From: a virus
Taxonomy: Duplodnaviria > Caudoviricetes
IMG/VR virus record: IMGVR_UViG_3300009031_000368
Span: 32,001-96,000 of that record
DNA length: 64,000 nucleotides
Direction: 5' to 3' (one strand)
Positions 1,560 through 63,013 of this stretch are shown here, piece after piece. The notes beneath the pieces were generated by a model. That model had not been told where the DNA came from. It saw nothing but the letters and a program-made list of their open reading frames with translations, and searched no databases. Position 1 is the first letter of the stretch. Every line of letters starts with the position of its first letter. A program made the translations under genes and the position numbers.

Positions 1560-2033
1560 TTAACCGTTTTCCCGGATGAGACGTTTTACTGACAGGATGG
1601 CATCAAAGACACTGGTTCGCCAGTTGAGAAGATGCTGTTTGTTGACATCGGCAGCATCCATCGCCATCAGCTTGTCGGTGGCTTGATTCCATTCCTGTTG
1701 CAACATGCTCAACTTTAATTCCAATTCCTTATGCTGCAATTGATTGCATTCGCGCTGGCTGAGATCATCAACAGCGCCACATGCCGCAATGTGACGAACC
1801 CATGATACCGTTGCTTGGTATGTGGTGTTCTCAACCACGACGGTGGCATGCAGGCTAAAGCCGTCATCCATCGTCACCACAACACTTCGATTCAAGTATC
1901 TGCTAAGCGTATTGGACAAATCAGCTACGGTATTACCATCAACGGCCTGTTTGACCGATAGACCATTAGGCACAACACTGTCGGCAAAAGTTAAAACAAT
2001 CATGTTTGTTATCCTCGTTTTGTTTGATCTCAA
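1560..2033 (-). CDS. hypothetical protein, 157 aa, C-terminal helical region
   Basis: ORF packed against its neighbour; contains a GCAATYRATTGC copy. Confidence 0.65.
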   Translation of the reverse strand: MRSNKTRITNMIVLTFADSVVPNGLSVKQAVDGNTVADLSNTLSRYLNRSVVVTMDDGFSLHATVVVENTTYQATVSWVRHIAACGAVDDLSQRECNQLQHKELELKLSMLQQEWNQATDKLMAMDAADVNKQHLLNWRTSVFDAILSVKRLIRENG

Positions 2034-2036
2034 ACA

Positions 2037-2321
2037 CTAATCACAATTGTTGTTTACCAGCTCCCACTGATACCAATCGGAACTTGTCCAGTCTCGGGTA
2101 TCCCATTCAAAATCCAGCGCGCGAATTTCCTGTTCGGTTTCCCAAGCGGCGGAATCCAGCTGGTTACACCACTCGCCGAGCTTTAACGCATTTTCTCGTT
2201 CTTCCGCTTCCTCTTCCATAAACCGGTCAATCCGTTCCGACCCAGCCTGCCACTCTGTCAGCAACATATCATGCTTGAAGTTCAGCTCCGCTAACCTGAT
2301 TTCATATTGTCGCTTCGTCAT
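2037..2321 (-). CDS. hypothetical acidic helical protein, 94 aa
   Basis: First ORF downstream of promoter 2368-2396. Confidence 0.65.
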   Translation of the reverse strand: MTKRQYEIRLAELNFKHDMLLTEWQAGSERIDRFMEEEAEERENALKLGEWCNQLDSAAWETEQEIRALDFEWDTRDWTSSDWYQWELVNNNCD

Positions 2322-2367
2322 TACCGTTCTCCGCGCGTTTTAGGCTCCCAAACAATCAACAGAACAT

Positions 2368-2396
2368 ATACTAGCATGATGATAGGAAAATGTCAA
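2368..2396 (-). promoter_or_regulatory. sigma70-type promoter (TTGACA-17-TAGTAT)
   Basis: tgtcaa at 2391-2396, atacta at 2368-2373, TGC extension. Confidence 0.8.
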
Positions 2397-2405
2397 GAGA
2401 AAATT

Positions 2406-2852
2406 TCAGCAGTCCGTCAATTGCCGGTATCGCTGGAAAGCTGCTTCGCCCCACACCGTATTGGTAAAATCGTACCTGGCGTCAAGGAGGCTTTCAGCGC
2501 CGATATTCCAACTGAATGTTCTAAACAACAGGTCGGTAGACTCATAGTTGATGCCTGATACGTGTAGTCCACCGTTACGTTCCGATACTTCGGCGCGAAG
2601 TACCTTCCAGCCCTTGTATTGGCTATAGAGCTTGACGTCGTGCAGGGTAAGATTCAGCCCATAAACGTAACATTCTATTCCCGCAATGTCGGCAACCCAT
2701 GAGTCAGGTACTTCGCCAAATCGACGAGGCACCAGCTTATGGAGGTAATTCCGCGCAGATTCAACACTATCATGTTCAACGACAATGATTTTCTTGTTGG
2801 CATCCTTCTCATTGCGCCAGATGAAAAACACAGCATCTCCTTTGAAATACAA
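2406..2852 (-). CDS. hypothetical protein (probable true start GTG at 2831)
   Basis: ORF track; AAGGAG lies 5 nt upstream of the GTG at 2831. Confidence 0.6.
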   Translation of the reverse strand: MYFKGDAVFFIWRNEKDANKKIIVVEHDSVESARNYLHKLVPRRFGEVPDSWVADIAGIECYVYGLNLTLHDVKLYSQYKGWKVLRAEVSERNGGLHVSGINYESTDLLFRTFSWNIGAESLLDARYDFTNTVWGEAAFQRYRQLTDC

Positions 2853-2869
2853 GGTTTAAAAACAACATC

Positions 2870-2898
2870 AATATAGCATCGCCGATATGATTTGTCAA
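2870..2898 (-). promoter_or_regulatory. sigma70-type promoter (TTGACA-17-TATATT)
   Basis: tgtcaa at 2893-2898, aatata at 2870-2875, TGC extension. Confidence 0.8.
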
Positions 2899-3085
2899 GA
2901 TGTTTTTAAAGCCATTGTCGGATTCAGGAATCATTCAGGCATATTGTTGTTGGTGCGACATCGTGAAGCACAGTTGTGTCCTGGTAATGCGTTATGGCTG
3001 GTGGATTGAATGATGGATAGGCGATTGTATTGGATCGATGCGCAATCAATTGCGCGGTATGCTGCGCAGACACTGGAAGAGAAAA

Positions 3086-3370: not shown

Positions 3371-3409
3371 GTTGTCATCCTTTAATTCAAGTATCCGGTT
3401 GATTAGATG

Positions 3410-3687: not shown

Positions 3688-3716
3688 GGTATACCTTGTC
3701 TCGAATCAAATGTCAA
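3688..3716 (-). promoter_or_regulatory. sigma70-type promoter (TTGACA-17-TATACC)
   Basis: tgtcaa at 3711-3716; same CTCTTGAC context as the promoters at 43 and 2396; weaker -10. Confidence 0.6.
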
Positions 3717-3728
3717 GAGAAATTTAAA

Positions 3729-5322: not shown

Positions 5323-5803
5323 AACAGACTTGCCAAGTTGTATCATGCCCGAAGTAGTCAATCGACATATAGAAGCGTGGACGGCTGTAGCTATTCTGAA
5401 AAAATGAAATTCTCCCTATAGGGACTTTTTCATTTTCACAGAATCAAGTCATCCTTCGCCGGCCGGCAATCAATTGCGCTATACGGGTAAAACGTCATAA
5501 CGTTATGTTAGCGCTAGATAAATTGCACCGACGCGCTGCCGGTAACGCCTAAATGGCAGTTGTGCAATGGTGCAGTGATTGAAGAAATCAAAAATCTCCT
5601 ATAGGGGAATTCTCATTTTCAGGATTCGGCACCATCGCACAACTATGTCGTTATGTCGGCCCGACAAACTGGCTGAAAATGTAACCGGTTGATAATATTA
5701 GATAAGTGGCGCAGCCAGCACCATGACGGTTGCTGTTGTCGGCTGGATATGCGGTATTATCGGTTGGGAAATAAAAATCTCCCTATAGGGAAATCTTAAA
5801 TCA
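5262..5803. repeat. array of four ~40-bp palindromic units with a CCTATAGG core
   Basis: Cores at 5281-5288, 5413-5424, 5598-5605 and 5780-5791; A-rich left arms and T-rich right arms. Confidence 0.85.
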
Positions 5804-8540: not shown

Positions 8541-9227
8541 TCAGAATGTGACGATGCCTTTTTCGTCAAGCACTATAATGCATCCGGCCAAATGGCGTAC
8601 CGAATCATTAACCTGTTTAAACTTATCATTAACGGTATAGAAATTTTCAGCAATGCCATTTCCGCTTGACATCGTTACCCGCATTTCTCGTTTTATATCC
8701 AACCTGTGCCCTGAGTCTGTTTCCTTCAGGTACCGTTCCATCAATCCAGTCAATACATTCAATGCCTTCATATTGATCTGAGTCAGGTTAAGGATCGTAG
8801 AAAGAATCGTTTCGTCTAGCTGCTGGAATCCACGGGACAACAAGTCTCTGATGTGTTGACTGTCCATCTTTCTTGCCGCTCTATCGGGCGGTATGAAATG
8901 GGTAAAACGCGCCAATTCATAATCTGGCGGGACATTGAATTTCAATGTCTGCCACTTCCCAGGATCATCGAATGCCAGGTCTTGAGCGAATCCATAAAAC
9001 GCGCCATAGGACTCATGCATATTGTGATATGCCTCATACACCTTGGGAACCAGGATACCCATATTGGTGTTGATGTCCCTATATCGGACTGTTTCTTTTT
9101 CAAACAGATGACGAGATCGCTGCGTCATCGTCTTGCATTCAATCACAACATCTTTAGATGTTTCGAGTAAAGAACTTGAAAGATGTAGATGCGCTAATGC
9201 GTTTTTTGTCGGATCTTGATTCATCAT
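8541..9227 (-). CDS. hypothetical protein, 228 aa
   Basis: Tightly packed ORF. Confidence 0.7.
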   Translation of the reverse strand: MMNQDPTKNALAHLHLSSSLLETSKDVVIECKTMTQRSRHLFEKETVRYRDINTNMGILVPKVYEAYHNMHESYGAFYGFAQDLAFDDPGKWQTLKFNVPPDYELARFTHFIPPDRAARKMDSQHIRDLLSRGFQQLDETILSTILNLTQINMKALNVLTGLMERYLKETDSGHRLDIKREMRVTMSSGNGIAENFYTVNDKFKQVNDSVRHLAGCIIVLDEKGIVTF

Positions 9228-9730
9228 GTGTTACCCATCAGGTAGGAAACGATTTGAACCGTTGCGTCATATCCGGCCCGGCCCTGTCTGACGTCGGCGC
9301 GATATACTTCAACGTCTCGCTGTTCAAACATCCTGGTCAACCTGGCAGCTTCTGTCTTTGCCTTTTCAATATTGTCAAATCCGCTAACTTGAACCGCCGT
9401 GATTATTCCATTGATTTGTTCGGATTCCCAGCAATCGACATCGGTGTTTACGTTTTCACGCTCTGCAATCAATTGCACATAACCGGTAAGCAATGAAACG
9501 ACTTGCTCTGGAATCAAGTGTCGGCCGGTTCCTGTTAACTGCTGTGCTTCATAAATCACTATATTGTCGCACTCTGCCGCAACAACGTCAGCAGTTTCGA
9601 TCAGGTTCCTGTATAGGAATTTATCGAACGTTTCACCGGGATTCATTACTCCAACGTCTCGTGTCCGATGTCGCAGGTATCGGTCTTTTAGATTCTCTAC
9701 TTTGTTTGCTTCAACTATGATACCCATCAC
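9224..9730 (-). CDS. hypothetical protein, 168 aa
   Basis: Coupled ORF; IIVEA near the N-terminus. Confidence 0.7.
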   Translation of the reverse strand: MMGIIVEANKVENLKDRYLRHRTRDVGVMNPGETFDKFLYRNLIETADVVAAECDNIVIYEAQQLTGTGRHLIPEQVVSLLTGYVQLIAERENVNTDVDCWESEQINGIITAVQVSGFDNIEKAKTEAARLTRMFEQRDVEVYRADVRQGRAGYDATVQIVSYLMGNT

Positions 9731-10991: not shown

Positions 10992-11144
10992 TCAATGTCT
11001 TGCAATATATTCATCAATCGCGACAGCCATTAACCGCATTGGGTCCATCTTCAGCTTTTGGGCTGATTCCATGATGGATTCCCATGTTGGTTTTGGAAGT
11101 AATATCATTCTTACTTCCGGTTCTTCCTGTCGCTGGTTTTGCAT
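10992..11144 (-). CDS. ribbon-helix-helix (CopG/Arc-like) DNA-binding protein, 50 aa; absent from the ORF track
   Basis: Hand translation MQNQRQEEPEVRMILLPKPTWESIMESAQKLKMDPMRLMAVAIDEYIARH fills the gap; strand-helix-helix pattern ending AIDEYI. Confidence 0.6.
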   Translation of the reverse strand: MQNQRQEEPEVRMILLPKPTWESIMESAQKLKMDPMRLMAVAIDEYIARH

Positions 11145-11159: not shown

Positions 11160-11633
11160 TTATCCAATCATGCTTTTGGCAATTTGTTTGAAGTCGTTCC
11201 CGCTAACCCATCCAAATCGTGCATTCAATTGCGCAATCTTGCTCAGCTCATGGTTTAGCCGGTCGGGTTCCGTCCCGTTAACTGCTTGCTCGATCAAACA
11301 TTCCACTTTAACGACATTCGGGTCCTTCATGCTGGCAAGGTCTCTGACGTCCCAGGAATTCTGTTTTACCGTCATAACTGATTGACCTTCGAGAATCAAC
11401 GACAACGTGTCTCCATCAACATCGGCTTCAACGATATTGATGCCCTTTAGTCCAAGCTGCTTTGAAACAGCTCCATATACCTGTTCACACTCGCGCCTAG
11501 ACTTGAATCCAGACAATTCCAGATGACATTGCTCATCATTATAAATCTGAGCCTGAATGCCACTGCTTTCGAGTTTGAACAACATATTGCCCAGTTGGCT
11601 CCTAAGTTGTCTTTCATTAAGTTCTAACTGCAT
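11160..11633 (-). CDS. hypothetical protein, 157 aa
   Basis: GAGGAAG RBS. Confidence 0.7.
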   Translation of the reverse strand: MQLELNERQLRSQLGNMLFKLESSGIQAQIYNDEQCHLELSGFKSRRECEQVYGAVSKQLGLKGINIVEADVDGDTLSLILEGQSVMTVKQNSWDVRDLASMKDPNVVKVECLIEQAVNGTEPDRLNHELSKIAQLNARFGWVSGNDFKQIAKSMIG

Positions 11634-12331: not shown

Positions 12332-14245
12332 CTACATCATGGTTCCTGCAATTTCAACAACATCATATGTCATAATAAGCGCAGAGATGCCGGCGTCTTG
12401 AGAACCATCGTCGGCAACAACTATCTTCCAATAGTATTCATATCCTGATTCGCTTGTTATTTCATGGTTAACATCAAAACTGCTACCTTCTCCCAGCTCT
12501 TCTCCAATATGTGTTGAAAATTCAGCTGAGACAAAACTATCCACATAGGTTCCGACATTTCTTTTTATAAGACGTGCCGTAACGGGATAATCTTCCAAAA
12601 GACCCATCTTCCAAAAGAAACGGACAGTTTCTATCGAACACGGTGGGACCGTTATGGGAATATAGAACGTTGCCGTTCCGGCTAGCGGTAGTGTGACGTA
12701 TGGGGAACCGGAATCTGTTGCCGATGCCAACAACGAACTACTATTGGAAGCAGCAATGCCAAGCCATCCATCACAGTGCATTGATTTATAAAATGTCTGT
12801 GCAGAATTATACTCAACACCCTCTAACGATACTACACCGGCATCAATCGTTGCAGTATCGACGCCATCGGTAACAGTCATGGCACCGGTAAGCTGCATAT
12901 CTCCTTCTAACGTGACATCACCATAGGATGCAAATGAGCCATAATGAGTCAAATCTATTTCAATAGACTCGGTGCCAATTTGAAACATATTGACAAGTGC
13001 TGTCGCGCCACCGTTTGGCCTTGAAAGATATAGCTTGCCGTCAGTGTGTTGATGCAATACAAAATCGCTATAACCTGAATCTCGTGATTCAATATGTATT
13101 CGATTTGTCCTTTTAGTGGCGGCCCTATAGCGAGATACACCGTCACGCCAGCCTGGTTCATTTCCACCATATGGTTTGGCATATATTTGGATTCCATCAA
13201 TCGTAATGGTTCCATACGTGCTATCAACAGTATCGTCTTGTCGATCAAATAATAGTTCTATTCTTGCACTTCTAGCCGTTGCTGGTGCCTGTGTATTTCT
13301 AGACGCTCCGCTATGCACAACGATGTCGCCAGTCATCAATATCCATTCACTATCTGCCAAATCGGCAATATCGTATTCATCATTAGCGCGGTAGTGAAAA
13401 TATCCAATACTGCTTAACGTTGCAGTTTCCGAATAAAACCTTACCAGAAATCTGAAACTATTATAGACGCCGGCCGTATCGGTGAGCCGGCATTCAGTAA
13501 GTAATGCGCTACGCTTAATCCAAAAAGAGGCCGACAGCTGCTCGCCGGCGTTTACATAGAATCCGCCTCGTTGTTTTACGTATCCGGTATAGCAATCATT
13601 GTAATCAACCTGAAGTGCATTTGATTGCGCGACACCGGCTCCTGTTGAAAATCCAAGCCATGCTGTTTCAGATGTTGTTGGCGTGCTGCCAACAGCAGTG
13701 CTGGATAATTCCCATCCATCGTTATCGTTAAAATCGTGCTCGATCAGTGGAAGCCATCCGGTTTCATCGTGCGATTTCCATTTCCACTGATCGTCTCTAC
13801 ACCAATAGCCGATATATCCATCAGTAACATTGTAACAAAAGGCAAGGATTGCACTATTGGTTGTCCCGTCATCGTATTCGGCTTGTGTATACACCTTCCA
13901 TTTTGCAGATGTCGACGTATCGCTGGCGAAAATGTGCTCCACGCCAACGTATACGGTACCGGTTAATCCTTCTGGAAATACCAGCGAGACATCGGATGAT
14001 TCCCTATATGTCAATCCATATGGATCGTCCGCACTAGCTTGACGTAACACCATTGCGCTATCTTGTGAGAGTGGATCCACGGAAAGAGTAACTATGTTTC
14101 CGCCTTCGACCGTAGGTGTAAAACCTCGCACGACACCACGGGCATTTACAGCGCCCGTTTTTCTATTGGACGCAATAGAAAATTGTGGAGACTTCCATCC
14201 CACTGAAAGCTTTTCGCTATTGATGGTAGCTAAATCGGTTGCCAT
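12332..14245 (-). CDS. tail fibre / receptor-binding protein, 637 aa, with a probable carbohydrate-binding beta-sandwich
   Basis: Follows the baseplate wedge genes; beta-rich and Trp/Tyr-rich central domain. Confidence 0.55.
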   Translation of the reverse strand: MATDLATINSEKLSVGWKSPQFSIASNRKTGAVNARGVVRGFTPTVEGGNIVTLSVDPLSQDSAMVLRQASADDPYGLTYRESSDVSLVFPEGLTGTVYVGVEHIFASDTSTSAKWKVYTQAEYDDGTTNSAILAFCYNVTDGYIGYWCRDDQWKWKSHDETGWLPLIEHDFNDNDGWELSSTAVGSTPTTSETAWLGFSTGAGVAQSNALQVDYNDCYTGYVKQRGGFYVNAGEQLSASFWIKRSALLTECRLTDTAGVYNSFRFLVRFYSETATLSSIGYFHYRANDEYDIADLADSEWILMTGDIVVHSGASRNTQAPATARSARIELLFDRQDDTVDSTYGTITIDGIQIYAKPYGGNEPGWRDGVSRYRAATKRTNRIHIESRDSGYSDFVLHQHTDGKLYLSRPNGGATALVNMFQIGTESIEIDLTHYGSFASYGDVTLEGDMQLTGAMTVTDGVDTATIDAGVVSLEGVEYNSAQTFYKSMHCDGWLGIAASNSSSLLASATDSGSPYVTLPLAGTATFYIPITVPPCSIETVRFFWKMGLLEDYPVTARLIKRNVGTYVDSFVSAEFSTHIGEELGEGSSFDVNHEITSESGYEYYWKIVVADDGSQDAGISALIMTYDVVEIAGTMM

Positions 14246-43562: not shown

Positions 43563-43579
43563 TTATTACTCCACCGTTA

Positions 43580-43909: not shown

Positions 43910-43955
43910 AATGTCTGGTCTGACTGTATTGAATCAACGATACAGTCAGAATGTT

Positions 43956-45455: not shown

Positions 45456-45474
45456 CTATAAACTTCCTTTCAAA

Positions 45475-48759: not shown

Positions 48760-48818
48760 ATTAATTTCCATATTTTTGCGCAAAATGTAACCTACAATCA
48801 CGCACTACATCTAACGAT

Positions 48819-49224: not shown

Positions 49225-49228
49225 ACGA

Positions 49229-49539: not shown

Positions 49540-49713
49540 TGTCTTTGATGCAAAACTGGTACCGGCCAACGTTCTAGGTTTCTTTTTAACCTTTCGGTTA
49601 GTCTTATTGTCACGCCAGTACGGTTTCATCCATCTATAGAAGCCAATCTTTTCAAGGCGGCCAGATCTGTAATGTGTTCTGGCTCGCCTTGGTGCTTCGT
49701 TGATTAAAAACCC
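49522..49713 (-). CDS. predicted -1 frameshift extension of the scaffold (61-aa basic tail)
   Basis: G GGT TTT slippery site at 49707-49713 immediately before the TAA; the -1 frame is open to 49522. Confidence 0.6.
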   Translation of the reverse strand, partial: GFLINEAPRRARTHYRSGRLEKIGFYRWMKPYWRDNKTNRKVKKKPRTLAGTSFASKTKWMKW

Positions 49714-50627: not shown

Positions 50628-50639
50628 TGTTACTTTCCT

Positions 50640-51503: not shown

Positions 51504-51558
51504 TTTATATCCCTTTAATGTTTCATCTAAGCTAAGACTATTGATATGTGTGCCTATG

Positions 51559-53292
51559 TCAATATTGTTTCTTTTGCATTTCGCTTCGCAATTCCATCAT
51601 CATAGCCCTTGATTTCCTTACATCTCGGCCAACGACATCCATTCGCTCTGTTAATTCGCCTTCCGCGCGCTTAATTCTTGCATCAAGCAATTTACTGACA
51701 TTCCTTTCAGTCAATTGTCCAGCGTTTCGCTTCGTCGGCTTAACCGGCTTACGGAATGTAATGCTTTCTTCACCATAATCACCGCCGCTGTCCTGATTAT
51801 ATGCGTCTTCAATCTCAGCCTGTTGTTCCATTCCGAATGATTGGGCCTTAGCCTGCGTCTTCCCTTCGTCAATGATTTCATTCCTACGCTGTTTCCTGAT
51901 TTCCACAATCTCGTCATCGGTAAACTGCATGACGTTTTTCAAACACCATGTCAGCGATGTGCTTTCAAGAAGCGATTGTATCGTTTGCGCCTTGGCCGCT
52001 AGTGCTTCAATCTGAGACAGTTCATAAATCATTGTTGGCTTTGTCATTGCCAATGTCCATTCGGATTCGTCTGGATCTTTGTCAATAGCCAATAGGTGTG
52101 CGCGACAGACCTGTTTAAATCCAGTCATGATTTCACGCTGGATATTCATCACAGACCTGGCAAAGTTTACATCGGCATGGCTTAAATGCTTTTCTGGAAT
52201 ATCGGCACCGAATCCCAAATATGCGGCAGGAACCTTTAATGCACCTTGCAGTGCCTCTCTAAATCTATCGATATCTTCAGTTCCAGTCCATCCCAATCCA
52301 CCAATCGTTTCAATCCTTGCAGAATCCTTGCCATCTCGTGTGGGTATCCATAGATTTTCGTTCATCGACAACGGGGTAGCGCGCATATCGAGCCCACCCT
52401 TTTCGACATTGTAAAACTTCTTTTTACTATACTGTTGCTTCAATCTATTGATATATTGTCTGGCTTCAGATTCCGGCATACTGCCAACATCGATAAAGAA
52501 TGCAAGCCGCTCTGGACTTCGTTCCAGCCGATACATCAAGCTGGCATCCTCCATCATGGCAAGACGCTTCCATACCGTCCTGGCCGCTTCAACGGCACTT
52601 ATTCCATATACAGATCTGATGTGTTTGGCGCGCAATCTCCAATGGACTATTTCCCATGGCTTATACAGTATCGCACCAGTTGCCGTTATAGCCTTATCGC
52701 GCGAAGCATTGGTATTGACAAAATATTCCATGTCGGTGTCGTTGAATTCAAACCGCATATTGGTATCTTGTATATATCCCAACGTCGTTCCACTAACATC
52801 CATAATCCTTCGCATGCTGGCAGGCGGGAGATAGTTTATGCCAATGACGCCAGTTTCATCAATAAGTATTTCTCCGTATGAGTTCCCCATGTGTGCCAGT
52901 GTCCTTGCCAATGGCCATATATCGGCTTCAATTTCAAGAGCACCATGTAGGAGACCGATCAATTCAGCCTTTGTCCAATCGTCTTCCGTAACGACCCACA
53001 TGCATATACCACGATTGTAATCCGGTTGTGATATATCGTTGGCATATACGTCAAGTGCCGTTTGGATGTATGAAAAGTCATCCATCGCTTCATAATCTCG
53101 ATACCTGGCATGAAGATCGGCTTCGACTTCCAGCATCGGCCTAATCAACGAATAGTTTGATTCAGATACTCCACCGCTACCATCTACACCGAATGTGCCG
53201 CTAATCGGTGACTTAGATGAGCCGGAAATGCGCGAATCCTTCTTACCGAAATACTGTTTAAATTTATCAGATATATTGTTGGACCAACCCAT
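51559..53292 (-). CDS. portal protein (T4 gp20-like), 577 aa
   Basis: YR.YEAM, IVHWRL, YG.S.+E.AR..WKRL.MMEDA..MYRL.RSPER..F.IDVG, ALKVP...L. Confidence 0.96.
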   Translation of the reverse strand: MGWSNNISDKFKQYFGKKDSRISGSSKSPISGTFGVDGSGGVSESNYSLIRPMLEVEADLHARYRDYEAMDDFSYIQTALDVYANDISQPDYNRGICMWVVTEDDWTKAELIGLLHGALEIEADIWPLARTLAHMGNSYGEILIDETGVIGINYLPPASMRRIMDVSGTTLGYIQDTNMRFEFNDTDMEYFVNTNASRDKAITATGAILYKPWEIVHWRLRAKHIRSVYGISAVEAARTVWKRLAMMEDASLMYRLERSPERLAFFIDVGSMPESEARQYINRLKQQYSKKKFYNVEKGGLDMRATPLSMNENLWIPTRDGKDSARIETIGGLGWTGTEDIDRFREALQGALKVPAAYLGFGADIPEKHLSHADVNFARSVMNIQREIMTGFKQVCRAHLLAIDKDPDESEWTLAMTKPTMIYELSQIEALAAKAQTIQSLLESTSLTWCLKNVMQFTDDEIVEIRKQRRNEIIDEGKTQAKAQSFGMEQQAEIEDAYNQDSGGDYGEESITFRKPVKPTKRNAGQLTERNVSKLLDARIKRAEGELTERMDVVGRDVRKSRAMMMELRSEMQKKQY

Positions 53293-53304
53293 TACGTTTT
53301 ATTC

Positions 53305-55329
53305 CTATTCATCAAATCCGAATATTATTGGTTGCTGGAATGGCTCACGCTTTGTTCTATTGGATGGATTTCGCACACCGATGACCCATGAATCATCTTC
53401 ATACTCTTCACGGCTAAATGAACCAGAGATGATGCCCATCGGACGAGATGGAGGATTTTCGACAAGACTGCAAACGACACCGGATGCCGATACGGCAAGG
53501 TCATCGTGTCCTTCTGTTCCATCAATATTAAGATTCGGATGATCAATGATTCCAGTGTTTGGATCCAGTTCAAGGTTTATCAATTCTCTCCTTAATGGAG
53601 AATATGGATAAACGATCAATCTGTCTTCATAGATGGCTGCTTTAATCCGTTCCAGTGCTCTCGACTTACCAGATTCACCGCTAATCAGCGAATGCTTGAT
53701 GCCACGTTCCTCAAACTTTTGCCGCGTTTCTAAATGATGATAACTATCCGTTGTGCAATGAACGATATTGAATCCATGTGCCTTAAGGTCATATATGAGA
53801 GCGCGCAATGCTCCCGGTGTAATCTCACCATTCTTTGGTGCAATTACTTGCATGATGAAGTCAATATAGATCTCTGGCGAATATTCGATATACTCCGTTC
53901 CATCTGGCGCAAGCTTGACGACATCGATCCATCTTGAAATATGCCCAACACAGATGCCGGCCGGATCTTGTCGGCCAGCTGAAAGGTCGATATGGGCATG
54001 ACGTGGTGCATTTGGATTAATGTGGGGGATGTAAACCTTTTCCTTATATCCGCCTTTTAATCTACGCTCAGCCTGACGGCAAAGTAGGTGCCATTCAAAG
54101 TCGCCCGATTCACCACAAGCCCATGTTTCAACGGTGAATGGATGATATAGCCCTTGTTTGAAACAGTTGTCGATCTTGTCGCGCCGGCCAATAAAGGTCT
54201 TTGTCGGCATCGTGCTGACACCAGCATGGTCGCGGATTGCAAGATCTAGATCGTTTTCAAAGACCTGTCGTAGGAATGGATGGTCTGGAACAGGAACTAT
54301 TTTGGCAAATCTATCCGGCCCTGATATTTCTTTCCTTACATGCTCTACTTCATCATTCGTTAGTATTCTATTTGAACACTGGTCGTCGCCGACCAATACG
54401 TAAAATCTCTCCTTGGGATATTGCTCCGGTATAAGTTCCCATTTTGCATACTCTTTTACCATTATTTTGTTTTTAGAATCTCTCGCAGCCTTCACTCTTT
54501 CATCCGTGAATGATCCAACGACATTCTTGGATGAAGCAAGTATCATGATCCCAGGTTTAATACCCGTTCCAGTAAATCGGCTTCTGATACGAGACAATAA
54601 TGCGGTATATTGTTGGTAGGCGACTCCTTTGTCTGCACGGGCTGATCGTTTACCTTCATAAAAGTTAGCTTCGTCAAGAGCTCCTCCGTAAACGTTTCTA
54701 CCAAGTAAGCCTGGTGATCCTGGAGATGCTGTAATGATTGATATATTTTTGGGGAAGTCTATAACGCCAGCTGATACCTTGTATCCGAGCTGTTTAAAGT
54801 ACGGAGATGATTCCAAGTTTGCAATTATGTCTGCAAAAATACCGCGTCGAACCTGTTGTAAGTCGACCGACAATACACCAAATGCAATGTTTTTACCATC
54901 CATCAATCCAAGCTGCCGTTGTGGATTTGCCAGGCAATATATCTGATACACCATGTAAGGAATTGCAAGCGCGCAGTATGTGCTTTTCCCTGTCCCGACA
55001 CCGCCAGATATAATTGCTTCATAGTAGTCGCCTTCAAACATTTCAATCAAATTTTCGATTAATGGTTTGTATGTTCCGGTGCATACTTCACCAAAATAAT
55101 ATGGATCTGAATAAAACGTCTTAGGCGACACCGGCCGTTCAGAATAATGGACTGATTCCAATACATCCAGGATTTCAGATTCACCACCATTATCTAGCTC
55201 GGCAAGTGCCTGCTCCAATACTTCGCGCTCTTCCGGCGAACATGAAGCAATCATGGCCTGAAGCTCTTCAAATTCCTCTTCCGGCGTTTTTACAGATATA
55301 ATCTTACCGTTAAAATCGATTAGATGCAT
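53305..55329 (-). CDS. terL: terminase large subunit
   Basis: Walker A GGVGTGKST, Walker B GGALDE, RNase H-like HIDLS and HDDLA; upstream of the portal. Confidence 0.92.
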   Translation of the reverse strand: MHLIDFNGKIISVKTPEEEFEELQAMIASCSPEEREVLEQALAELDNGGESEILDVLESVHYSERPVSPKTFYSDPYYFGEVCTGTYKPLIENLIEMFEGDYYEAIISGGVGTGKSTYCALAIPYMVYQIYCLANPQRQLGLMDGKNIAFGVLSVDLQQVRRGIFADIIANLESSPYFKQLGYKVSAGVIDFPKNISIITASPGSPGLLGRNVYGGALDEANFYEGKRSARADKGVAYQQYTALLSRIRSRFTGTGIKPGIMILASSKNVVGSFTDERVKAARDSKNKIMVKEYAKWELIPEQYPKERFYVLVGDDQCSNRILTNDEVEHVRKEISGPDRFAKIVPVPDHPFLRQVFENDLDLAIRDHAGVSTMPTKTFIGRRDKIDNCFKQGLYHPFTVETWACGESGDFEWHLLCRQAERRLKGGYKEKVYIPHINPNAPRHAHIDLSAGRQDPAGICVGHISRWIDVVKLAPDGTEYIEYSPEIYIDFIMQVIAPKNGEITPGALRALIYDLKAHGFNIVHCTTDSYHHLETRQKFEERGIKHSLISGESGKSRALERIKAAIYEDRLIVYPYSPLRRELINLELDPNTGIIDHPNLNIDGTEGHDDLAVSASGVVCSLVENPPSRPMGIISGSFSREEYEDDSWVIGVRNPSNRTKREPFQQPIIFGFDE

Positions 55330-56066
55330 TACTTATCCGCCAACAGTTTAACCGATGTCGCCTGTTCAAGATCGTCACCGTTGAGATTCTTTAGCTTCTT
55401 TGCGCGCTTCAAGATATCCAACAGCTTATTGCGTGAAGCATTGTTCTTGAGCACTTCCGATACTTGACTGCCGACATTCTGTAACACTGAATCCTTTTGA
55501 GATTGCGTGTCCTCCAATGGAATCCCCATATTGACTTTTATCTCGGCGCTTGTTTGTAACAGTGACTGTGAAAGCTTCATCGCATTAGTTACGTTTGGAT
55601 TCAAAAATCCCATACTGGCTTCTTGTTCCATGGCGGTTTCAAGTCTTACAGAATTGAGCGCATGCATTTTATGCAATTCCGTCACTTCATTGATACCGGC
55701 TTCAAGTTTTGCCAGCGCTTTAGCAGCAAACTCTGGGAGATGATGTTGAGCTATTTCACCGGCTGGAATCTTATTCCGACGATACCATGACAATACCGAT
55801 GTCAATGAATCATGATCAATATGTAAATATTCTTGACAATCTTCTTGTATGTATTTAGCAATCACTGAAGGAGTAATCCCTGCTTTCAATCTGGATTCCA
55901 CTTCCGGCCAACATTTGATTCTCGTCAGCTTAGGTGGACTTTTTACAAGTTGCGGACGTCGCACGCTATTGGTAGCTGGCGTAACATCAATAACCTCGAA
56001 TCGCTTTAAATCGTCCGAATCATCGAAATCGAACACTGTCATCTCGATATCTTCATCTTCTGTCAT
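55329..56066 (-). CDS. putative terminase small subunit
   Basis: TAATG-coupled to terL; N-terminal HTH-like segment followed by helices. Confidence 0.5.
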   Translation of the reverse strand: MTEDEDIEMTVFDFDDSDDLKRFEVIDVTPATNSVRRPQLVKSPPKLTRIKCWPEVESRLKAGITPSVIAKYIQEDCQEYLHIDHDSLTSVLSWYRRNKIPAGEIAQHHLPEFAAKALAKLEAGINEVTELHKMHALNSVRLETAMEQEASMGFLNPNVTNAMKLSQSLLQTSAEIKVNMGIPLEDTQSQKDSVLQNVGSQVSEVLKNNASRNKLLDILKRAKKLKNLNGDDLEQATSVKLLADK

Positions 56067-56097
56067 TCCAATACTCCATAAAAATGTATCTACCTAT

Positions 56098-56126
56098 AAG
56101 TTATTGAAATTCAATGTTAATGTCAA
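56098..56126 (-). promoter_or_regulatory. possible promoter for the packaging operon (TTGACA-17-TAACTT)
   Basis: tgtcaa at 56121-56126; weak -10. Confidence 0.45.
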
Positions 56127-56182
56127 AAACAAAAAAGCAGATGACTGGTCGGCCCAATTACCGATTCAATCATCTGCTTTTT
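56126..56182 (-). terminator. intrinsic terminator-like hairpin
   Basis: 13-bp arms AAAAAGCAGATGA (56132-56144) and TCATCTGCTTTTT (56170-56182) with a U-tract on the minus strand. Confidence 0.7.
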
Positions 56183-56216
56183 ATCTAAATCAAAGAATGT
56201 ATATTAAAACTATCTA

Positions 56217-57095
56217 TCAGTAGTCGTCATCATTATCGGCAGACTGCTCTGAATCACTGTAATCAAGTGCGTCCGTGTATGATGAAGATAGAAGTTGTTC
56301 GTCGGTGGCATTTGAAGCAACCGCCGCAATCGCATCGATGGCATCTTCGCCATACACGACATCGACGCTGTTTCGCTTAAGGGCCAGGATCGTGATGCCA
56401 AAGTTCTCTTCAAGACTCTTCAACAAGTATGGTAATCCGTCCAAGTTATCGACACCGGCATTCAGGGCAAGGAAGTTGGTGCAGATCTGGTCAATCAAAT
56501 GTCCCGGCTTATCGGATTCTGCCATTTCGGCGGCTTTCTTTAAAGCCAATTCGACATTGTGAAGCTGCTCATCGGTTAGCTTGAAATTCTTACTGTTGAA
56601 CTTTTCACCTGTTGGAAGGTCGGCCGGATCAACATCGGCGTCAGGATCATCGGCCATCTTCTGGAGAGCACCACGAGCCAGTTCGAGAAGCTTTGGTGCC
56701 GATACCTGTTTGGCGGTTTCAACCCACTGGTCAACGTTATCTGGTGTAACGACGCCGATTAGATCCTTGGCCTTTGTCCAACCGATCGTCTTAACCTTAT
56801 CCATCACTTCCGGATTTCCCGCAAGCTTCACACCATAGTATGCCCACATGGAAATAAAATACTGTGCCTTACGCTTCTCAAAATCTAAATCGTTTTCCAC
56901 ATACTCGACAAAGTTTTCATACCCTAGCCTGGTGTAGAGCGCTTCCTGGTGAATGGTGTATAGCACTTCGGCCAGATCAAAGTTCACACTATCGATGCGC
57001 TTCCTGCAATCCCGCGCCTTTTCACCAAAATCATGTGCGCGGATATCCTTTTCATCCAAAACCTCTACCTGTTGATCAACGTTAAATTCATTCAT
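56217..57095 (-). CDS. DUF3102-like helical DNA-binding protein, acidic C-tail
   Basis: L..I....LY..LGY.NF.EY....L.F..RKAQY.I and IGWTKA..L. Confidence 0.55.
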   Translation of the reverse strand: MNEFNVDQQVEVLDEKDIRAHDFGEKARDCRKRIDSVNFDLAEVLYTIHQEALYTRLGYENFVEYVENDLDFEKRKAQYFISMWAYYGVKLAGNPEVMDKVKTIGWTKAKDLIGVVTPDNVDQWVETAKQVSAPKLLELARGALQKMADDPDADVDPADLPTGEKFNSKNFKLTDEQLHNVELALKKAAEMAESDKPGHLIDQICTNFLALNAGVDNLDGLPYLLKSLEENFGITILALKRNSVDVVYGEDAIDAIAAVASNATDEQLLSSSYTDALDYSDSEQSADNDDDY

Positions 57096-57121
57096 CGTCT
57101 GTTATCTCCCATCATTTCCAT

Positions 57122-57394
57122 TTAAATAAAAACTACTTCTTTAATTCTAACTTCGGTAAGTTCTTTGCGCTTCATCAACTCGCCATAAACTTCGGCACGG
57201 CAACCTGCGGCCATATGGCTTCGGCAGATTTGTACCAAGGTCGGCCCATATGCGTTACAGCGAATTGCTGTAATAAATCCGCCATTACCCTCAACGACAA
57301 GCCTAAACGTCGCGCAGTCAGTTCCACTATTGGTTTCATCGAACAGCGGATCTTCAACCGTTCCAGAAACCATTACATGATTCATACCTCTCAT
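57122..57394 (-). CDS. ssb: single-stranded DNA-binding protein (OB fold only, no acidic tail)
   Basis: MNHV.VSG.V.DP....T.SG...ATFRL, IRC.AYG, G.R.EV.G.L. Confidence 0.75.
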   Translation of the reverse strand: MRGMNHVMVSGTVEDPLFDETNSGTDCATFRLVVEGNGGFITAIRCNAYGPTLVQICRSHMAAGCRAEVYGELMKRKELTEVRIKEVVFI

Positions 57395-57442
57395 TCAAGT
57401 TACTCCGTATATATCACAAATATCAAAAGTTGTATCACTCAT

Positions 57443-57494
57443 GCAATTAATTGCACCATTGATTCATGATAAAGCATCTGTTACAGGCTGTCAA
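57443..57494 (-). promoter_or_regulatory. sigma70 promoter (TTGACA-17-TATCAT) with a GCAATTAATTGC palindrome just downstream
   Basis: tgtcaa at 57489-57494, atgata at 57466-57471, palindrome at 57443-57454. Confidence 0.75.
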
Positions 57495-57516: not shown

Positions 57517-58044
57517 TTAAATTGATGGTTTGATTGAATCGGTGACTTTATCGGCTTGAAGAACTGTATCTTGAACTTCAATATCTGATTCAACAGTAAC
57601 TACAATCATCCGGACGCCCGGATTTGTTCCATATCTCTTACTGATTGTAATATTTACGACCTGATTATCATCCTTAATGACTACACCTTTTATTGCGTCC
57701 TCGACAAGTTTACAAATATTAGAGCAGTCAGGAGTAACTATTGGTAAAAGCTCATGTTTTAGCGCGGCCTCGTGCTTCTTTTTAGAAAATGAAGTCGGTA
57801 TAGGGAATGTCGCTTCTATCCGGATATGAACCGCGCCAACATATGGTGGTCGTACCGTCTCACCGTTCTGGTACGCTGTTGCCGCATAGAATCTCACTTC
57901 AGCCTCACGGCTCACCGTTTCTGGATCCGCGTATGTTGACACAAATTTTCCGACACGTCTAAATTTTGGAGACTTCTTTCCTGCCGGTTTCCCTGGAACA
58001 AAAATATCAATCAATGTTTGCTGCAACTGATGGCACTCCTTCAA
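57517..58044 (-). CDS. rusA: RusA-family Holliday junction resolvase
   Basis: VPG.P..K..P.F, PD..N..K..EDA..G....DD.QV....ISKRY. Confidence 0.88.
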   Translation of the reverse strand: MKECHQLQQTLIDIFVPGKPAGKKSPKFRRVGKFVSTYADPETVSREAEVRFYAATAYQNGETVRPPYVGAVHIRIEATFPIPTSFSKKKHEAALKHELLPIVTPDCSNICKLVEDAIKGVVIKDDNQVVNITISKRYGTNPGVRMIVVTVESDIEVQDTVLQADKVTDSIKPSI

Positions 58045-58417
58045 TCTCTATATCGCAATGTGTTATGATGAAACCATCATCGATAACGTTATCTGTTGTG
58101 GAACCATATCCGGATAACCTGGCGCTGATTGAATATATGGGCTGTCGTTGTTCAAGAATCTGATGTAAAATATTTCCTTGTGGTGTCGCAACAATTTCGA
58201 TATCTGCGACCACTATATCATCGTCATCAACACACATCTCCGTTACACGGTGTGATACTTCGCCCAGCTTCGAGTCTGACGCTGAACCAGTATAGATACG
58301 ACCATACATTGGAAATATTGCCCGGCCGATGGCACGTTCAACGACTTCTCTGGGATATATGTTGCCATTACGGGTTGGCTGGCCGGTTTTCATTCCTTTC
58401 ACATTACATATCTTCAT
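58007..58417 (-). CDS. prohead-protease paralog lacking the ELDHP His motif
   Basis: PTRNGNIY, VSHRVTE, EIVATPQGNIL and SGYGSTT align with the protease at 45475-48759. Confidence 0.75.
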   Translation of the reverse strand: MKICNVKGMKTGQPTRNGNIYPREVVERAIGRAIFPMYGRIYTGSASDSKLGEVSHRVTEMCVDDDDIVVADIEIVATPQGNILHQILEQRQPIYSISARLSGYGSTTDNVIDDGFIITHCDIEIEGVPSVAANID

Positions 58418-58941
58418 TTACTATCCCGGTGTTCTTTTCTAACCTGTACCAGTAATTGAATTTCTGGCTCAGACAATCCAGTATTCTCTCTAAGATAGAC
58501 AGCATATTGTTCGTCGTCATACCCGCGACTATTGGCATATGATGCAAGCCAAGACACTGTTGTTATTTGTCGCTCTCTCAATATTGAATCAATATCCTCA
58601 TCAGAAAACTTCATTATATTCTTTAACATCCATTGGCTCGAAAGCCTGTCGGCTGCTACATTTCGTTCGTTTTGCAATTTCTCGATTTGTGCATTATTCA
58701 AAACCAGATACTCCACAATAGTCTTTTTGAACTCATCTTCATTGAAGTCATTCATTTCAACATATTGTGCAATCAATTGCGCGGCCATGGTGATGCTGTT
58801 AGACATCTGACTAGATAACCATTCCGGTTCAGGAAATCTGTCACCGTCGATATCTTTCAATACATAATTCCGCATATCACGAACACGGCCCATTTGGATA
58901 TCGATCAATTCACTCATTAAAGTCTTAACGTCCATTATCAT
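58414..58941 (-). CDS. protein containing a portal C-terminal (crown)-like segment
   Basis: QIEKL...SSQWMLKNIMKFSDEDIDSILRER versus portal QIEAL...SLTWCLKNVMQFTDDEIVEIRKQR. Confidence 0.65.
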   Translation of the reverse strand: MIMDVKTLMSELIDIQMGRVRDMRNYVLKDIDGDRFPEPEWLSSQMSNSITMAAQLIAQYVEMNDFNEDEFKKTIVEYLVLNNAQIEKLQNERNVAADRLSSQWMLKNIMKFSDEDIDSILRERQITTVSWLASYANSRGYDDEQYAVYLRENTGLSEPEIQLLVQVRKEHRDSK

Positions 58942-60690: not shown

Positions 60691-60691
60691 T

Positions 60692-61033
60692 TTATCCTTT
60701 CTTAATTGTTTTTACCAAATTGAAAGATGAATCATATACCTTGGTGTCATCGTCAGGCTTTGAACCATACAATGCAACAAATACCGGACAATCGATTTGT
60801 CTCGATAGTTGTTTCAAATAGATTGAGTCACCAATAGCCTCATTAATCGAGGCATTCCTAGCAAAACATATTCCAACGACACCATTGTCATTCGCATATT
60901 TAATCGGAAATTTATATCCTATTGCACTAACAAGCTTATAGCTGTCGGTACGACATAGCGCATCATGTATCCGAGCATTCAAAAGCCAATCTGGCTTTCT
61001 GAATAGTATTTGTTTAATTGTCTCTTGTTTCAT
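60692..61033 (-). CDS. hypothetical protein, 113 aa
   Basis: Packed ORF. Confidence 0.65.
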   Translation of the reverse strand: MKQETIKQILFRKPDWLLNARIHDALCRTDSYKLVSAIGYKFPIKYANDNGVVGICFARNASINEAIGDSIYLKQLSRQIDCPVFVALYGSKPDDDTKVYDSSFNLVKTIKKG

Positions 61034-61045
61034 TTTGCAATTTAC

Positions 61046-62014
61046 CTACACTGAGAAACAAATATCTTCCAACTGACATTCCTTAGCTCGTGGACATGAC
61101 CTGGTGCCACATATGCGTTTTGGCAGTGGACCACCATCCAATCCTTCACGCAGCGCAATGATGTTGGATCTGATTTCATCGAACTGTTGTTGGTCTCTAT
61201 TTACGAATACTTCCAGCCAACTATCCTTAATGCTGTTGGTGCTCTTGTCCAGGAATACGAATCTCATCCTACGCCGGTTAGCGGTAGCTAGATAGAATTG
61301 CGCCTGAACCTTATACTTGTCATAAATGTCACCATTCCTGAATCCCTTCATGCTCCATCCGTTGGCTGTTTTGAATTCCCACATATCGGTAGGAATTGGA
61401 TGGAAGCCATCGGTGTGTCCATGAATCCCTAACTCATGGTCTACAAGATAAAGCTCCACATACTCGAACATAACCGGCACAACTTCCCATGCCTCGCCGC
61501 ATTGCTCGCACACTTTATTGGTATACGATTTATCGATTTCCGGATCCCGGTTACGCTTACACTCATTGTGACATTTTACACAAATCAACGTCCCTGACTT
61601 AAATCCACAACCATCGCATCCATCCGGCATAACGGTCGGCTCACTGAATGAACCATGAATCCTGTTACAATTGCTGCACTTCCATTGACCTGTCAACAGC
61701 TTTCGTGGGCCAAGGATTTCGTTCTGAAACACGTAATGCAATCCGGTTCCAATTGCCATCGCCCACTTAATGTCAGAACTCCATGGCTTGGTTCTGATGA
61801 TATCATGACGCGCGGCAAGAACTTCCTCCCTGGCACAGACACCACCTAATCCGCTCGCCCTGATATACGTACCTGATTTCATCGGCCGGATGGTGTCTTC
61901 ACTCTTTAGATTCTCAATACCCCAATCAACAAGCCTTACGTCTCGGATCGGGATGGTTGATTCTTCAACGGTTGAAGTATCCTTTTTTATCGACTTTATA
62001 ATATTGCCTAACAT
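61046..62014 (-). CDS. solo Cas4-like PD-(D/E)XK exonuclease with a multi-CxxC insertion
   Basis: RAS.LG.VC.RE, GT.LH, GHTDG, WEFKT, Q.Q.Y, C-terminal Cys cluster. Confidence 0.85.
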   Translation of the reverse strand: MLGNIIKSIKKDTSTVEESTIPIRDVRLVDWGIENLKSEDTIRPMKSGTYIRASGLGGVCAREEVLAARHDIIRTKPWSSDIKWAMAIGTGLHYVFQNEILGPRKLLTGQWKCSNCNRIHGSFSEPTVMPDGCDGCGFKSGTLICVKCHNECKRNRDPEIDKSYTNKVCEQCGEAWEVVPVMFEYVELYLVDHELGIHGHTDGFHPIPTDMWEFKTANGWSMKGFRNGDIYDKYKVQAQFYLATANRRRMRFVFLDKSTNSIKDSWLEVFVNRDQQQFDEIRSNIIALREGLDGGPLPKRICGTRSCPRAKECQLEDICFSV

Positions 62015-62021
62015 TTGTTTC

Positions 62022-62366
62022 CTAATCTGGCTTTACGATTACTTCAAATTCTACAAACCACACCAACCGACCTGTTCCGAATGCCGCTCCAGTTTTACGC
62101 TTTCCATCAAGGAAATCTTTAATGGCTTCATCACGCGACCTGTTGCCAAGCTGACGCGCCATAGTTTCAGTCAAATCCGTCAACTTAAGACGTCGTGTGG
62201 TTCTGATTCTTACAACGGCAAACGGACCATTCTTTTCAGAGACATGAAGCGTTTGAACACTTCCTTCCGGTAATTCTGGAACATCTGTCGGCCAAGATCT
62301 AAGAAAGGCATTAATTTTACCGGTCAATATCTGTTCTCGTTCTGTTTCATTATATACAATCGCCAT
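62022..62366 (-). CDS. ASCH/PUA-like domain protein
   Basis: IL.GK..A.LR, V.I......L.DLTE..A...G..S.DE, VW.VEF. Confidence 0.65.
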   Translation of the reverse strand: MAIVYNETEREQILTGKINAFLRSWPTDVPELPEGSVQTLHVSEKNGPFAVVRIRTTRRLKLTDLTETMARQLGNRSRDEAIKDFLDGKRKTGAAFGTGRLVWFVEFEVIVKPD

Positions 62367-62382
62367 ACCTTATCCATTCTGT

Positions 62383-62640
62383 TTAATTCATACATTCTTT
62401 AGCTGTATGTATCATTTCTTCTAACAACTGGTCAACGGTGACATATGGAAGCATACCGTTTAACTGCTCTTCCGTCATTTCCGGACTATATAGCATCACA
62501 ATCTCTCGTGCCAACATCCTTCCGGTATTCACACCAAGCGCATAACTTTCATGCTCTAAGCTGAACGGCTCTTTTATCCTGCTCACCGTTAATAGAAACC
62601 TGAATTTTGTGTATTCATCGTTATCCATCATCTCCACCAA
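62383..62640 (-). CDS. hypothetical protein, 85 aa
   Basis: Packed ORF. Confidence 0.6.
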   Translation of the reverse strand: MVEMMDNDEYTKFRFLLTVSRIKEPFSLEHESYALGVNTGRMLAREIVMLYSPEMTEEQLNGMLPYVTVDQLLEEMIHTAKECMN

Positions 62641-63013
62641 ACTTACTATAAAACAAACTCGCCGGGATCAGGAACCAATCCTTTTCAACGAGTCGATTGT
62701 CAAACGTTAATTGAATTGAAAGTGCCGGCTGTCTTCCGGCCTGTAATGCTTCCATGGTAATCTTTTCCAGCCAATCGGCTCTAACGGATAATGATGCTTT
62801 ATCGGTGCGCTTTGCTTCAATCAAAAACTGTTCACTCTTAACATCACCCTTAGCTCTGAAGTCTGCCCCGCTTAACGGTTGTCGTTTTGCTGAGTTTAGA
62901 TTGCGTGCAATCGATTGCTCTTGCCGCTTTGAATCGTCCTTGATTTTCTTGCGATCCACGCCACCTTCAAAACAGGTATTCTTTAGGCTTTTAGGGTTTT
63001 GAGGAAGTGCCAC
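62621..63013 (-). CDS. PD-(D/E)XK Holliday junction resolvase-like endonuclease
   Basis: QE..IAR, R.P.SGA...KGDV....FLIEAKRT, WL.KI..EA...G..PAL. Confidence 0.8.
   Translation of the reverse strand: MALPQNPKSLKNTCFEGGVDRKKIKDDSKRQEQSIARNLNSAKRQPLSGADFRAKGDVKSEQFLIEAKRTDKASLSVRADWLEKITMEALQAGRQPALSIQLTFDNRLVEKDWFLIPASLFYSKFGGDDG

Follow-up and report, generated by a model that had tools for sequence, protein, structure and literature searches.

Which protein reads a short near-palindromic word that recurs throughout the genome of a large bacteriophage, and what are the copies for? The question is raised by a stretch of 64,000 nucleotides (hereafter the window) corresponding to bases 32001-96000 of the IMG/VR virus record IMGVR_UViG_3300009031_000368 (G000), a linear record of 231,714 bp with 44% guanine-plus-cytosine (GC) content and ~76% completeness according to CheckV, assembled from groundwater metagenomes. 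Its gene content is that of a jumbo myovirus, with tail sheath, baseplate, tape measure, T4-type portal, prohead protease, major capsid and large terminase genes. The word, GCAATYRATTGC (approximately RYGCAAT-YR-ATTGCRY with its flanks), is best explained as the recognition site of a dimeric DNA-binding protein of the phage itself, for which the product of the gene at 56217-57095, here called P0001, is the candidate; a probability of roughly 0.6 is given to this reading.

Exact matches to GCAATYRATTGC number 15 in the window, where dinucleotide shuffles averaged 0.04 and never exceeded 1, and 58 in the whole record, in which a control pattern made by reading the word backwards has 0 copies. 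Against an order-3 Markov model, GCAATCAATTGC is the most over-represented 12-mer genome-wide (53 observed, 0.155 expected). The initial annotation had listed the 15 starts, estimated ~0.02 copies by chance in 64 kb, and placed ten copies in coding sequences (CDS), with all three frames used, and five between genes; all 15 coordinates and this division were reproduced exactly, and the counts are indeed far above chance. Its description of the word as a 12-bp palindrome has to be amended, as GCAATCAATTGC and GCAATTGATTGC are reverse complements of each other and perfect palindromes occur only among the copies with a CG or TA centre. The central dinucleotide is CA/TG in 53 of the 58 copies, CG in four and TA in one, while the symmetry extends outwards through the flanking bases, Y in 52/58 copies and R in 54/58. 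The copies in the window are given below without strand, the signs in brackets being those of the open reading frames (ORFs); the copy starting at 57443 is given further on, with the promoter beside it.

1736-1747, motif copy GCAATTGATTGC, within ORF 1560-2033 (-)
3042-3053, motif copy GCAATCAATTGC, intergenic
5466-5477, motif copy GCAATCAATTGC, intergenic
9465-9476, motif copy GCAATCAATTGC, within ORF 9224-9730 (-)
15823-15834, motif copy within ORF 15492-16073 (-)
21044-21055, motif copy within the tail/baseplate-hub-like ORF 20185-21462 (-)
27211-27222, intergenic motif copy, overlapping on the minus strand a promoter-like TTGCAA-17-TACAAT (read by eye) before the T4-baseplate-like gene 26291-27169
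29794-29805, intergenic motif copy directly upstream of ORF 29257-29760 (-)
34530-34541, motif copy within ORF 34217-34666 (-)
38496-38507, motif copy with CG centre, a perfect palindrome, in the overlap of ORFs 38073-38528 and 38431-38964 (-)
43084-43095, motif copy within ORF 42780-43562 (-)
51420-51431, motif copy within ORF 50640-51503 (-), which adjoins the portal gene
58769-58780, motif copy within ORF 58414-58941 (-)
62907-62918, motif copy with CG centre, within the Holliday-junction-resolvase-like gene 62621-63013 (-)

Genome-wide, 48 copies lie in CDS (12, 6 and 30 in the three frames) and 10 are intergenic. Synonymous-codon shuffling within each gene kept a mean of 3.5 and a maximum of 8 in-CDS copies against the 48 observed, which bears out the earlier claim that protein coding fails to explain them; the result that the initial annotation had set against its own reading, counts matched by codon- or dinucleotide-preserving shuffles, was not seen (3.5 against 48, and 0.04 against 15). 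Selection acts on the DNA itself. The copies have no preferred position within genes and none for 5' ends (histogram 9/6/13/8/12), and their orientation relative to the coding strand is unbiased in the window phage, at 21 CA to 20 TG. Their spacing is evener than random, with a coefficient of variation of the gaps of 0.71 (P=0.003) and only 2 gaps below 1 kb against 12.7 expected (P=5e-5), and even spacing was also found in Stenotrophomonas phage DLP5 and in the three complete IMG/VR genomes G001, G002 and G003. Copies with one mismatch number 22 against ~6 expected, and 16 of the 22 fall within gaps of more than 6 kb, which make up 37% of the genome (P=8e-4). Given this concentration in the large gaps, the functional set probably comprises ~70-75 sites and leaves few gaps longer than 6 kb. 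One-mismatch copies in the window, likewise given without strand, include the following.

11221-11232, GCATTCAATTGC, in the 6.4-kb gap between the exact copies at 9465 and 15823
13617-13628, GCATTTGATTGC, in the same gap
49754-49765, GCAATCGCTTGC, in the 8.3-kb gap 43084-51420
53840-53851, GCAATTACTTGC, in the 6.0-kb gap 51420-57443

The word is one member of a motif family, TGCAAY-NN-RTTGCA, found at one copy per 2-4 kb in many phages of 40-65% GC, a density that is constant even though the proteins shared by these phages are only 22-46% identical. A scan of IMG/VR with TGCAATCAATTGCA found numerous contigs carrying 3-7 copies per ~12 kb, with GC contents of 45 to 63%, and for the control 14-mer TGCAATCAAATGCA, a one-base variant, only single matches per contig were present among the matches listed. 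Array contigs of 90-100 kb are related to cultured siphoviruses. Stenotrophomonas phage DLP5 has 28 copies in 96.5 kb, Stenotrophomonas phage Summit 27, and Rhodobacter phage RcZahn 8 exact copies together with related words; the complete genomes G001, G002 and G003 have 40, 37 and 47 copies respectively. The exact word has 0 copies in the Rhizobium phages TM16 and L338C, in which unbiased k-mer enrichment revealed versions of their own, TGCAAC-AT-ATTGCA in TM16 (~17 copies) and TGCAAC-NN-GTTGCA in L338C (47-52 copies in 109.6 kb; L338C word TGCAACNNGTTGCA). The form GCAAT-YR-ATTGC is common to the window phage, DLP5 and L407, with looser forms in RcZahn and in L254, and GCGCAATCGATTGCGC recurs six times in 18.5 kb of a relative with 65% GC and a binder of 47% identity. 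The short contigs of the distant family members L409-L413 were too small for the array to be assessed. Literature searches with the motif as a string returned only primers and no paper describing the word, which is not mentioned in the papers on DLP3/DLP5 and RcZahn.

Neither the phage collection nor IMG/VR contained a close relative of the window phage by DNA or by capsid protein. The closest relative, L254 (GCA_902730535.1), is a 305-kb huge phage found through its binder protein, which is 67% identical to P0001; its word is looser (TGCAAY-CA-AHTGCA), recurs ~every 4 kb and stands at gene positions that differ from those of the window phage. Consequently, positional conservation was testable only between DLP5 and Summit, which are 90.6% identical overall. 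Their motif bases have 5 mismatches in 324, four of these in one lost site, compared with 9.5% mismatches in the 58-nt flanks (P=4e-9 for the difference). The preference at the outer flank is particular to each lineage, namely RC in the window phage, AG in DLP5, G001 and G002, and AAA in G003, and at one flank position the preference is asymmetric (P=7e-4). In G002 (IMGVR_UViG_3300037261_000012, 94,883 bp, whole record), 35 of the 37 copies have the CA centre on the plus strand (35:2), with P=2e-6 against the 3:2 that would follow from stop-codon avoidance in one frame, so that in some lineages the near-palindrome acts like a directional signal.

Two side observations concern these relatives. 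At 11843-18094 of L254 the large terminase and portal genes each carry an intein (Intein_splicing / LAGLIDADG matches); the large terminase TerL (674 aa) and the portal (577 aa) of the window phage are intein-free. In addition, five copies in 6.3 kb were found at the end of the Comamonas testosteroni SWCO2 scaffold KZ984448.1 (160001-166265), beside a DLP5-like head gene, and this stretch probably belongs to a phage or phagemid of the array-bearing group that is resident in the bacterial assembly.

Comparison of all ORFs by BLASTP left only seven proteins common to the window myovirus and four siphoviruses, these being TerL, a UvsX/RecA recombinase, a DnaB-like helicase, a superfamily 2 (SF2) helicase, an AAA ATPase, a 130-aa Holliday-junction resolvase and P0001. 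The last, PHROG 17202 of unknown function, is the sole one of the seven without an obvious catalytic role; the 130-aa protein was also considered as the binder and was rejected as being a resolvase.

56217-57095, minus strand, candidate binder P0001, 292 aa, all-helical, with a conserved basic helix-turn-helix (HTH)-like core at ~57-112, a predicted dimer interface and an acidic tail at 261-292

The P0001 family is large, with 1,665 representative clusters at E<=0.001. Whole-record searches found a homologue in four array-rich records (G001, G002, G003 and G004) and none in a fifth, a 27-kb fragment. Four records with a single hit served as controls; three of them (G006, G007 and G008) lack a homologue and have 1-2 copies of the word, and G009 (183.6 kb, complete), although picked as such a control, has both a P0001 homologue and 10 copies. 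The initial annotation had proposed four candidate binders, of which only 56217-57095 has stood, with homologues in the array-bearing genomes checked apart from the 27-kb fragment; the other three (10992-11144, 55329-56066 and 42780-43562) showed no family matches and no conservation.

The candidate gene is further linked to the array by the layout of its own promoter. It is the second gene of a two-gene unit that starts with a small gene resembling single-stranded DNA-binding protein (SSB), an order also present in two relatives; this first gene and the elements ahead of the unit are as follows.

57122-57394, minus strand, small SSB-like gene, first of the two-gene unit (PF00436, E=5.6e-4, below the curated cut-off)
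57442-57455, minus strand, TGCAATTAATTGCA, the sole TA-centred and perfectly symmetric copy in the genome (start 57443 as a 12-mer), ~10 nt past the -10 box of the ssb/binder promoter, proposed autoregulatory operator
57466-57494, minus strand, sigma-70-like promoter TTGACA-17-TATCAT, matching 11/12 consensus positions

The sole TA-centred copies of DLP5 and Summit also stand before the binder-family gene. More generally, 7/12 lineages have a copy of the motif at a distance of 61-117 nt upstream of that gene (DLP5 -77, RcZahn -87, L338C -61, L117 -102, L016 -117, G001 -87 and G003 -100), for which the chance in even 6/12 lineages is ~3e-5, and no similar pattern is present at any of the other six shared genes. 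Intergenic copies as a class are ~2-fold enriched in the window phage (10/58, against 8.6% non-coding sequence) and more so in DLP5 according to its GenBank annotation.

The AlphaFold model of P0001 is confident and all-helical, with a mean predicted local distance difference test score of 88. Sequence searches against solved structures gave nothing, and a Foldseek search of the AlphaFold database clusters returned DUF3102 proteins together with the N-terminal domains of DUF222-type HNH endonucleases. Weak matches to DUF3102 were obtained for 14 of 49 family members (best E=1.4e-4), and the P0001 family is read, from these matches, as related to but separate from DUF3102, for which no functional literature was found. 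In an exhaustive VIA-align comparison of residues 33-152 with the PDB, the top matches include DNA-binding domains of the ParB/KorB type. The ParB-parS structure 6s6h_B reached Z 6.4 (root-mean-square deviation 3.1, 102 aligned), Spo0J (1vz0) 5.8, KorB 5.2 (8qa8) and 4.8 (1r71), SopB 4.5 and VirB 4.3, with P1 ParB also among them, the best value of 6.4 being, like any Z under 8, within reach of chance in helical proteins. Conservation and basic charge are highest in the segments 57-80 and 101-112, which fall inside this central domain and outside the predicted dimer interface; that interface would be formed by the long N-terminal helix and the C-terminal domain. Homodimer prediction gave a score of 0.49 with a best control of 0.00; in calibration, 21 of the 30 proteins solved as pairs reached the mark, against 0 of the 23 solved as single chains. 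The tail, residues 261-292 (window 56217-56312), is strongly acidic (>40% D/E) and poorly conserved, and recalls the tails with which SSB-type proteins recruit partners. No ParB N-terminal CTP-binding domain (cytidine triphosphate; ParB/Srx, PF02195) is present in P0001 itself, and a six-frame search of the 231.7-kb record, ~76% complete, gave no match at E<=0.1, the same search having matched in 11 of 14 control genomes. P0001 is predicted to be a dimeric, site-specific DNA-binding protein with a ParB-like DNA-binding domain and no clamp.

Taken together, these results suggest that P0001, with a predicted ParB/KorB-like HTH core and without a CTPase clamp, would bind the GCAATYRATTGC sites; that it would repress its own ssb-binder operon through the perfectly symmetric copy just past the -10 box; and that it would occupy ~60-75 further sites, maintained by selection at ~1 per 3-4 kb and blind to genes, frame and strand. 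The proposal of the initial annotation that the array is the site of a phage-encoded DNA-binding protein is supported in so far as the variant of the word follows the lineage and the product of 56217-57095 is conserved, has a copy upstream of its gene in many lineages, is a predicted dimer and resembles ParB/KorB DNA-binding domains in its modelled central domain; a phage-encoded binder is likely, and P0001 would be the candidate for it.

Several points weigh against this assignment. The co-occurrence of the array and P0001 is confounded by descent, because the array phages share the whole replication/recombination module, and another small protein of that module, unlinked by BLAST, could be the binder, for example the DLP5 'transcriptional regulator' gp060 or the basic gp066. 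There is no copy just upstream of the gene in TM16, G002, L100 and the closest relative, L254. The common CA/TG centre is asymmetric, and neither this nor the one-sided flank preference nor the strand bias of G002 is predicted by a simple symmetric dimer. As for the fold, the Pfam DUF3102 match of P0001 stops at 16.4 bits, under the gathering cut-off of 24.4, Foldseek against the PDB returned nothing below E=0.001, and the Z scores carry the caution given with them. With respect to purpose, the single tie of the array to DNA metabolism is the gene neighbourhood.

That neighbourhood is constant in kind. The binder gene of the window phage has as neighbours RusA, SSB, a second resolvase, a Cas4-like exonuclease and UvsX/RecA, and that of DLP5 has RecA, a resolvase and RuvC.

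57517-58044, RusA resolvase
61046-62014, Cas4/RecB-like exonuclease
62621-63013, second, unrelated Holliday-junction resolvase
98592-99839 of G000, UvsX/RecA, just past the window

Because the binder gene always lies in a recombination/replication module and the even spacing ignores genes and transcription units, we tentatively favour, at somewhat under even odds, a role in phage DNA metabolism, in which the bound sites would be regularly placed landmarks that control or mark recombination-dependent replication, promoter repression being a side role. A bolder form of this idea, which must be regarded as a long shot, is that the array is a protein-read 'self mark', in which dimers every 3-4 kb would show the phage recombination machinery (the Cas4/RecB-like exonuclease, SF2 helicase, SSB, UvsX/RecA and resolvases) the points at which resection should end and strand invasion or replication should begin. 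If true, it would constitute a phage-encoded, palindromic and protein-mediated analogue of Chi that also tells phage from host DNA and is common to a large phage family, from 90-kb siphoviruses to jumbo myoviruses.

A second over-represented word was noted in the same genome. TTGTCAAGAGAAAATT, with the core TGTCAAGAGAAA, was observed 10 times against 0.05 expected, has ~10-13 copies genome-wide, and is probably a phage promoter or regulatory box; phage L338C has an analogous second word, TTGACAAAGGAT, in ~20 copies.

2391-2402 and 3711-3722, second word TTGTCAAGAGAAAATT
38-49, second word with one mismatch

Other purposes for the GCAATYRATTGC array were weighed against the landmark role. Global silencing of transcription, by dispersed operators or roadblocks acting in the lysogeny of DLP5/DLP3 or as a lytic temporal switch, in the manner of KorB-OB or of the L5 stoperators, is possible if rather improbable. 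It would fit the copy in classic operator position on the ssb/binder promoter, the overlap of at least one other intergenic copy (window 27211) with a promoter-like element, the enrichment of intergenic copies, above all in DLP5, the strong orientation bias of G002 and the temperate lifestyle of DLP3 (PMC7326821) and of DLP5, which is kept as a phagemid (PMC5834331). Yet 83% of the copies are intragenic and spread uniformly along genes, their orientation to the coding strand is 21:20 in the window phage, an even spacing that ignores operons is not predicted by promoter control, and P0001 lacks the CTPase clamp by which KorB acts at a distance. The same phagemid state of DLP5 (PMC5834331) is also compatible with a DNA-organising or segregation scaffold, in which bound dimers would bridge or loop the genome for compaction, phagemid partition or packaging order, and so are the even, gene-independent spacing in six genomes, the predicted ParB-like DNA-binding domain and the position of the binder gene two genes upstream of TerL in the window myovirus. 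Such a scaffold is nevertheless unlikely, as partition needs few sites and not dozens, no ParA/ParB CTPase partner was found in the window-phage record, and in siphoviruses the binder gene is far from the packaging genes. Moreover, the DLP3 homologue, gp62, is missing from the 21 proteins detected in ghost particles by mass spectrometry, which leaves a role inside the capsid unsupported; that analysis detected RecA, the shared AAA ATPase and gp61, the product of the 204-aa gene just upstream of the operator (PMC7326821).

Reading of the sites by a host factor, either a nucleoid protein or a host nuclease for which the word is a Chi-like signal that the phages exploit or evade, could account, through one conserved host protein, for a core word that phages of Gamma- and Alphaproteobacteria have in common with uncultured phages of 40-65% GC. 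It is nonetheless very improbable, considering that two Rhizobium phages have different words, that flank preferences are specific to the lineage, that a conserved copy upstream of one phage gene suggests a phage protein, and that a scan of bacterial genomes gave nearly all single chance copies, the few multi-copy stretches looking like resident phages. A phage-encoded reader is therefore favoured over a host factor, since word and flank vary by phage lineage and the matches in bacterial genomes are almost all single chance copies. There is equally little to recommend the word as a site of enzymatic action, be it programmed nicks of the T5/phiKMV type, a target of DNA modification or the footprint of a tiny mobile element. 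Dispersed consensus nick sites do occur in other phages, and DLP3 DNA resisted all 15 restriction enzymes tested, so that DNA in the DLP3/DLP5 phage group is modified (PMC7326821). However, the known nick consensuses are asymmetric and strand-specific whereas the array word is a palindrome that occurs in either orientation, a modification target needs neither enrichment nor even spacing, and the copies stand in unique in-frame coding contexts with no flanking repeat or indel signature. A restriction site within the word (CAATTG/ATCGAT) was rejected, the CG-, TA- and CA-centred forms having no one site in common, as was a hairpin or cruciform, for which the stem is 5-7 bp and the loop 2 nt. The consensuses known for IHF, Fis, the LacI family, matS, SlmA, Noc and parS do not fit the array word.

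Finally, the array can be set beside known systems. Chi sites, the hotspots of RecBCD/AddAB, are asymmetric, strand-biased 5-8-mers that are read in single-stranded DNA by the nuclease itself. The array word is likewise a short word over-represented in coding sequence genome-wide, and Chi acts on DNA metabolism, as the array would in the landmark role that we prefer, but the array word is a duplex palindrome of 12-16 bp whose putative reader is a separate protein. The stoperators of mycobacteriophage L5 and Cluster A, served by gp71, the immunity repressor of a temperate phage, and reportedly described by Brown et al. in 1997, are asymmetric, oriented with transcription and located mostly in short intergenic gaps. 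With them the array has in common dozens of copies of one short site across a phage genome and a phage protein, here a candidate, that would also control a promoter. In contrast, the array site is near-palindromic and 83% intragenic, the binder families are unrelated, and the stoperator comparison drawn in the initial annotation fails on orientation, the window phage having 21 copies in one orientation to the coding strand and 20 in the other; orientation bias as a stoperator feature is present in one relative, G002 (35:2). Cluster O mycobacteriophages have a 17-bp dyad repeat, TGTTCGG-N3-CCGAACA, in >30 invariant copies inside and between genes, 24 of 34 being between genes or near gene ends, with a central spacer that varies, little meaning in orientation, and reader and purpose unknown (PMC4351075). 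The array resembles this repeat as an interrupted palindrome distributed genome-wide and differs from it in sequence, host group and phage type, as well as by the candidate binder and operator layout described here. Genome-wide arrays of a single palindrome have been seen before in a few phages, the Cluster O repeats and stoperators among them; what is new is the same word family at constant density across phages with proteins of only 25-35% identity, ranging from 90-kb siphoviruses to a jumbo myovirus of >230 kb, at 40-65% GC, with a concrete candidate reader from a large uncharacterised family. Cultured and genetically tractable carriers exist (DLP5, DLP3, Summit, RcZahn and L338C), and together with the candidate reader they make the purpose of evenly spaced intragenic sites directly testable.

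With KorB, the protein of the IncP plasmid RK2 that has OB operators (PMC11790492), and with ParB-parS, SopB-sopC and VirB, the array shares a dimeric protein of a mobile element (here predicted), a dispersed palindrome of 13-16 bp and one copy that controls, or in the array would control, the protein's own expression. The window phage has such a site in several copies, one of them at the binder's own promoter, and ParB, Spo0J, KorB, SopB and VirB are the best structural matches of the modelled central domain of P0001. The ParB/parS comparison of the initial annotation accordingly holds for the likeness in DNA-binding-domain fold suggested by the model, and not for the N-terminal CTPase domain of ParB, which the record lacks. 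The array is set apart from KorB by having 58-75 sites instead of 12, mostly intragenic and evenly spaced, by the place of the gene in a recombination module, and by the lack of an identified KorA/ParA partner in the window phage. P0001 itself differs from KorB in having no CTPase/clamp domain, its model beginning with the long, presumably dimerising helix, and a ParB-like DNA-binding module that works without a CTP clamp may thereby be revealed.

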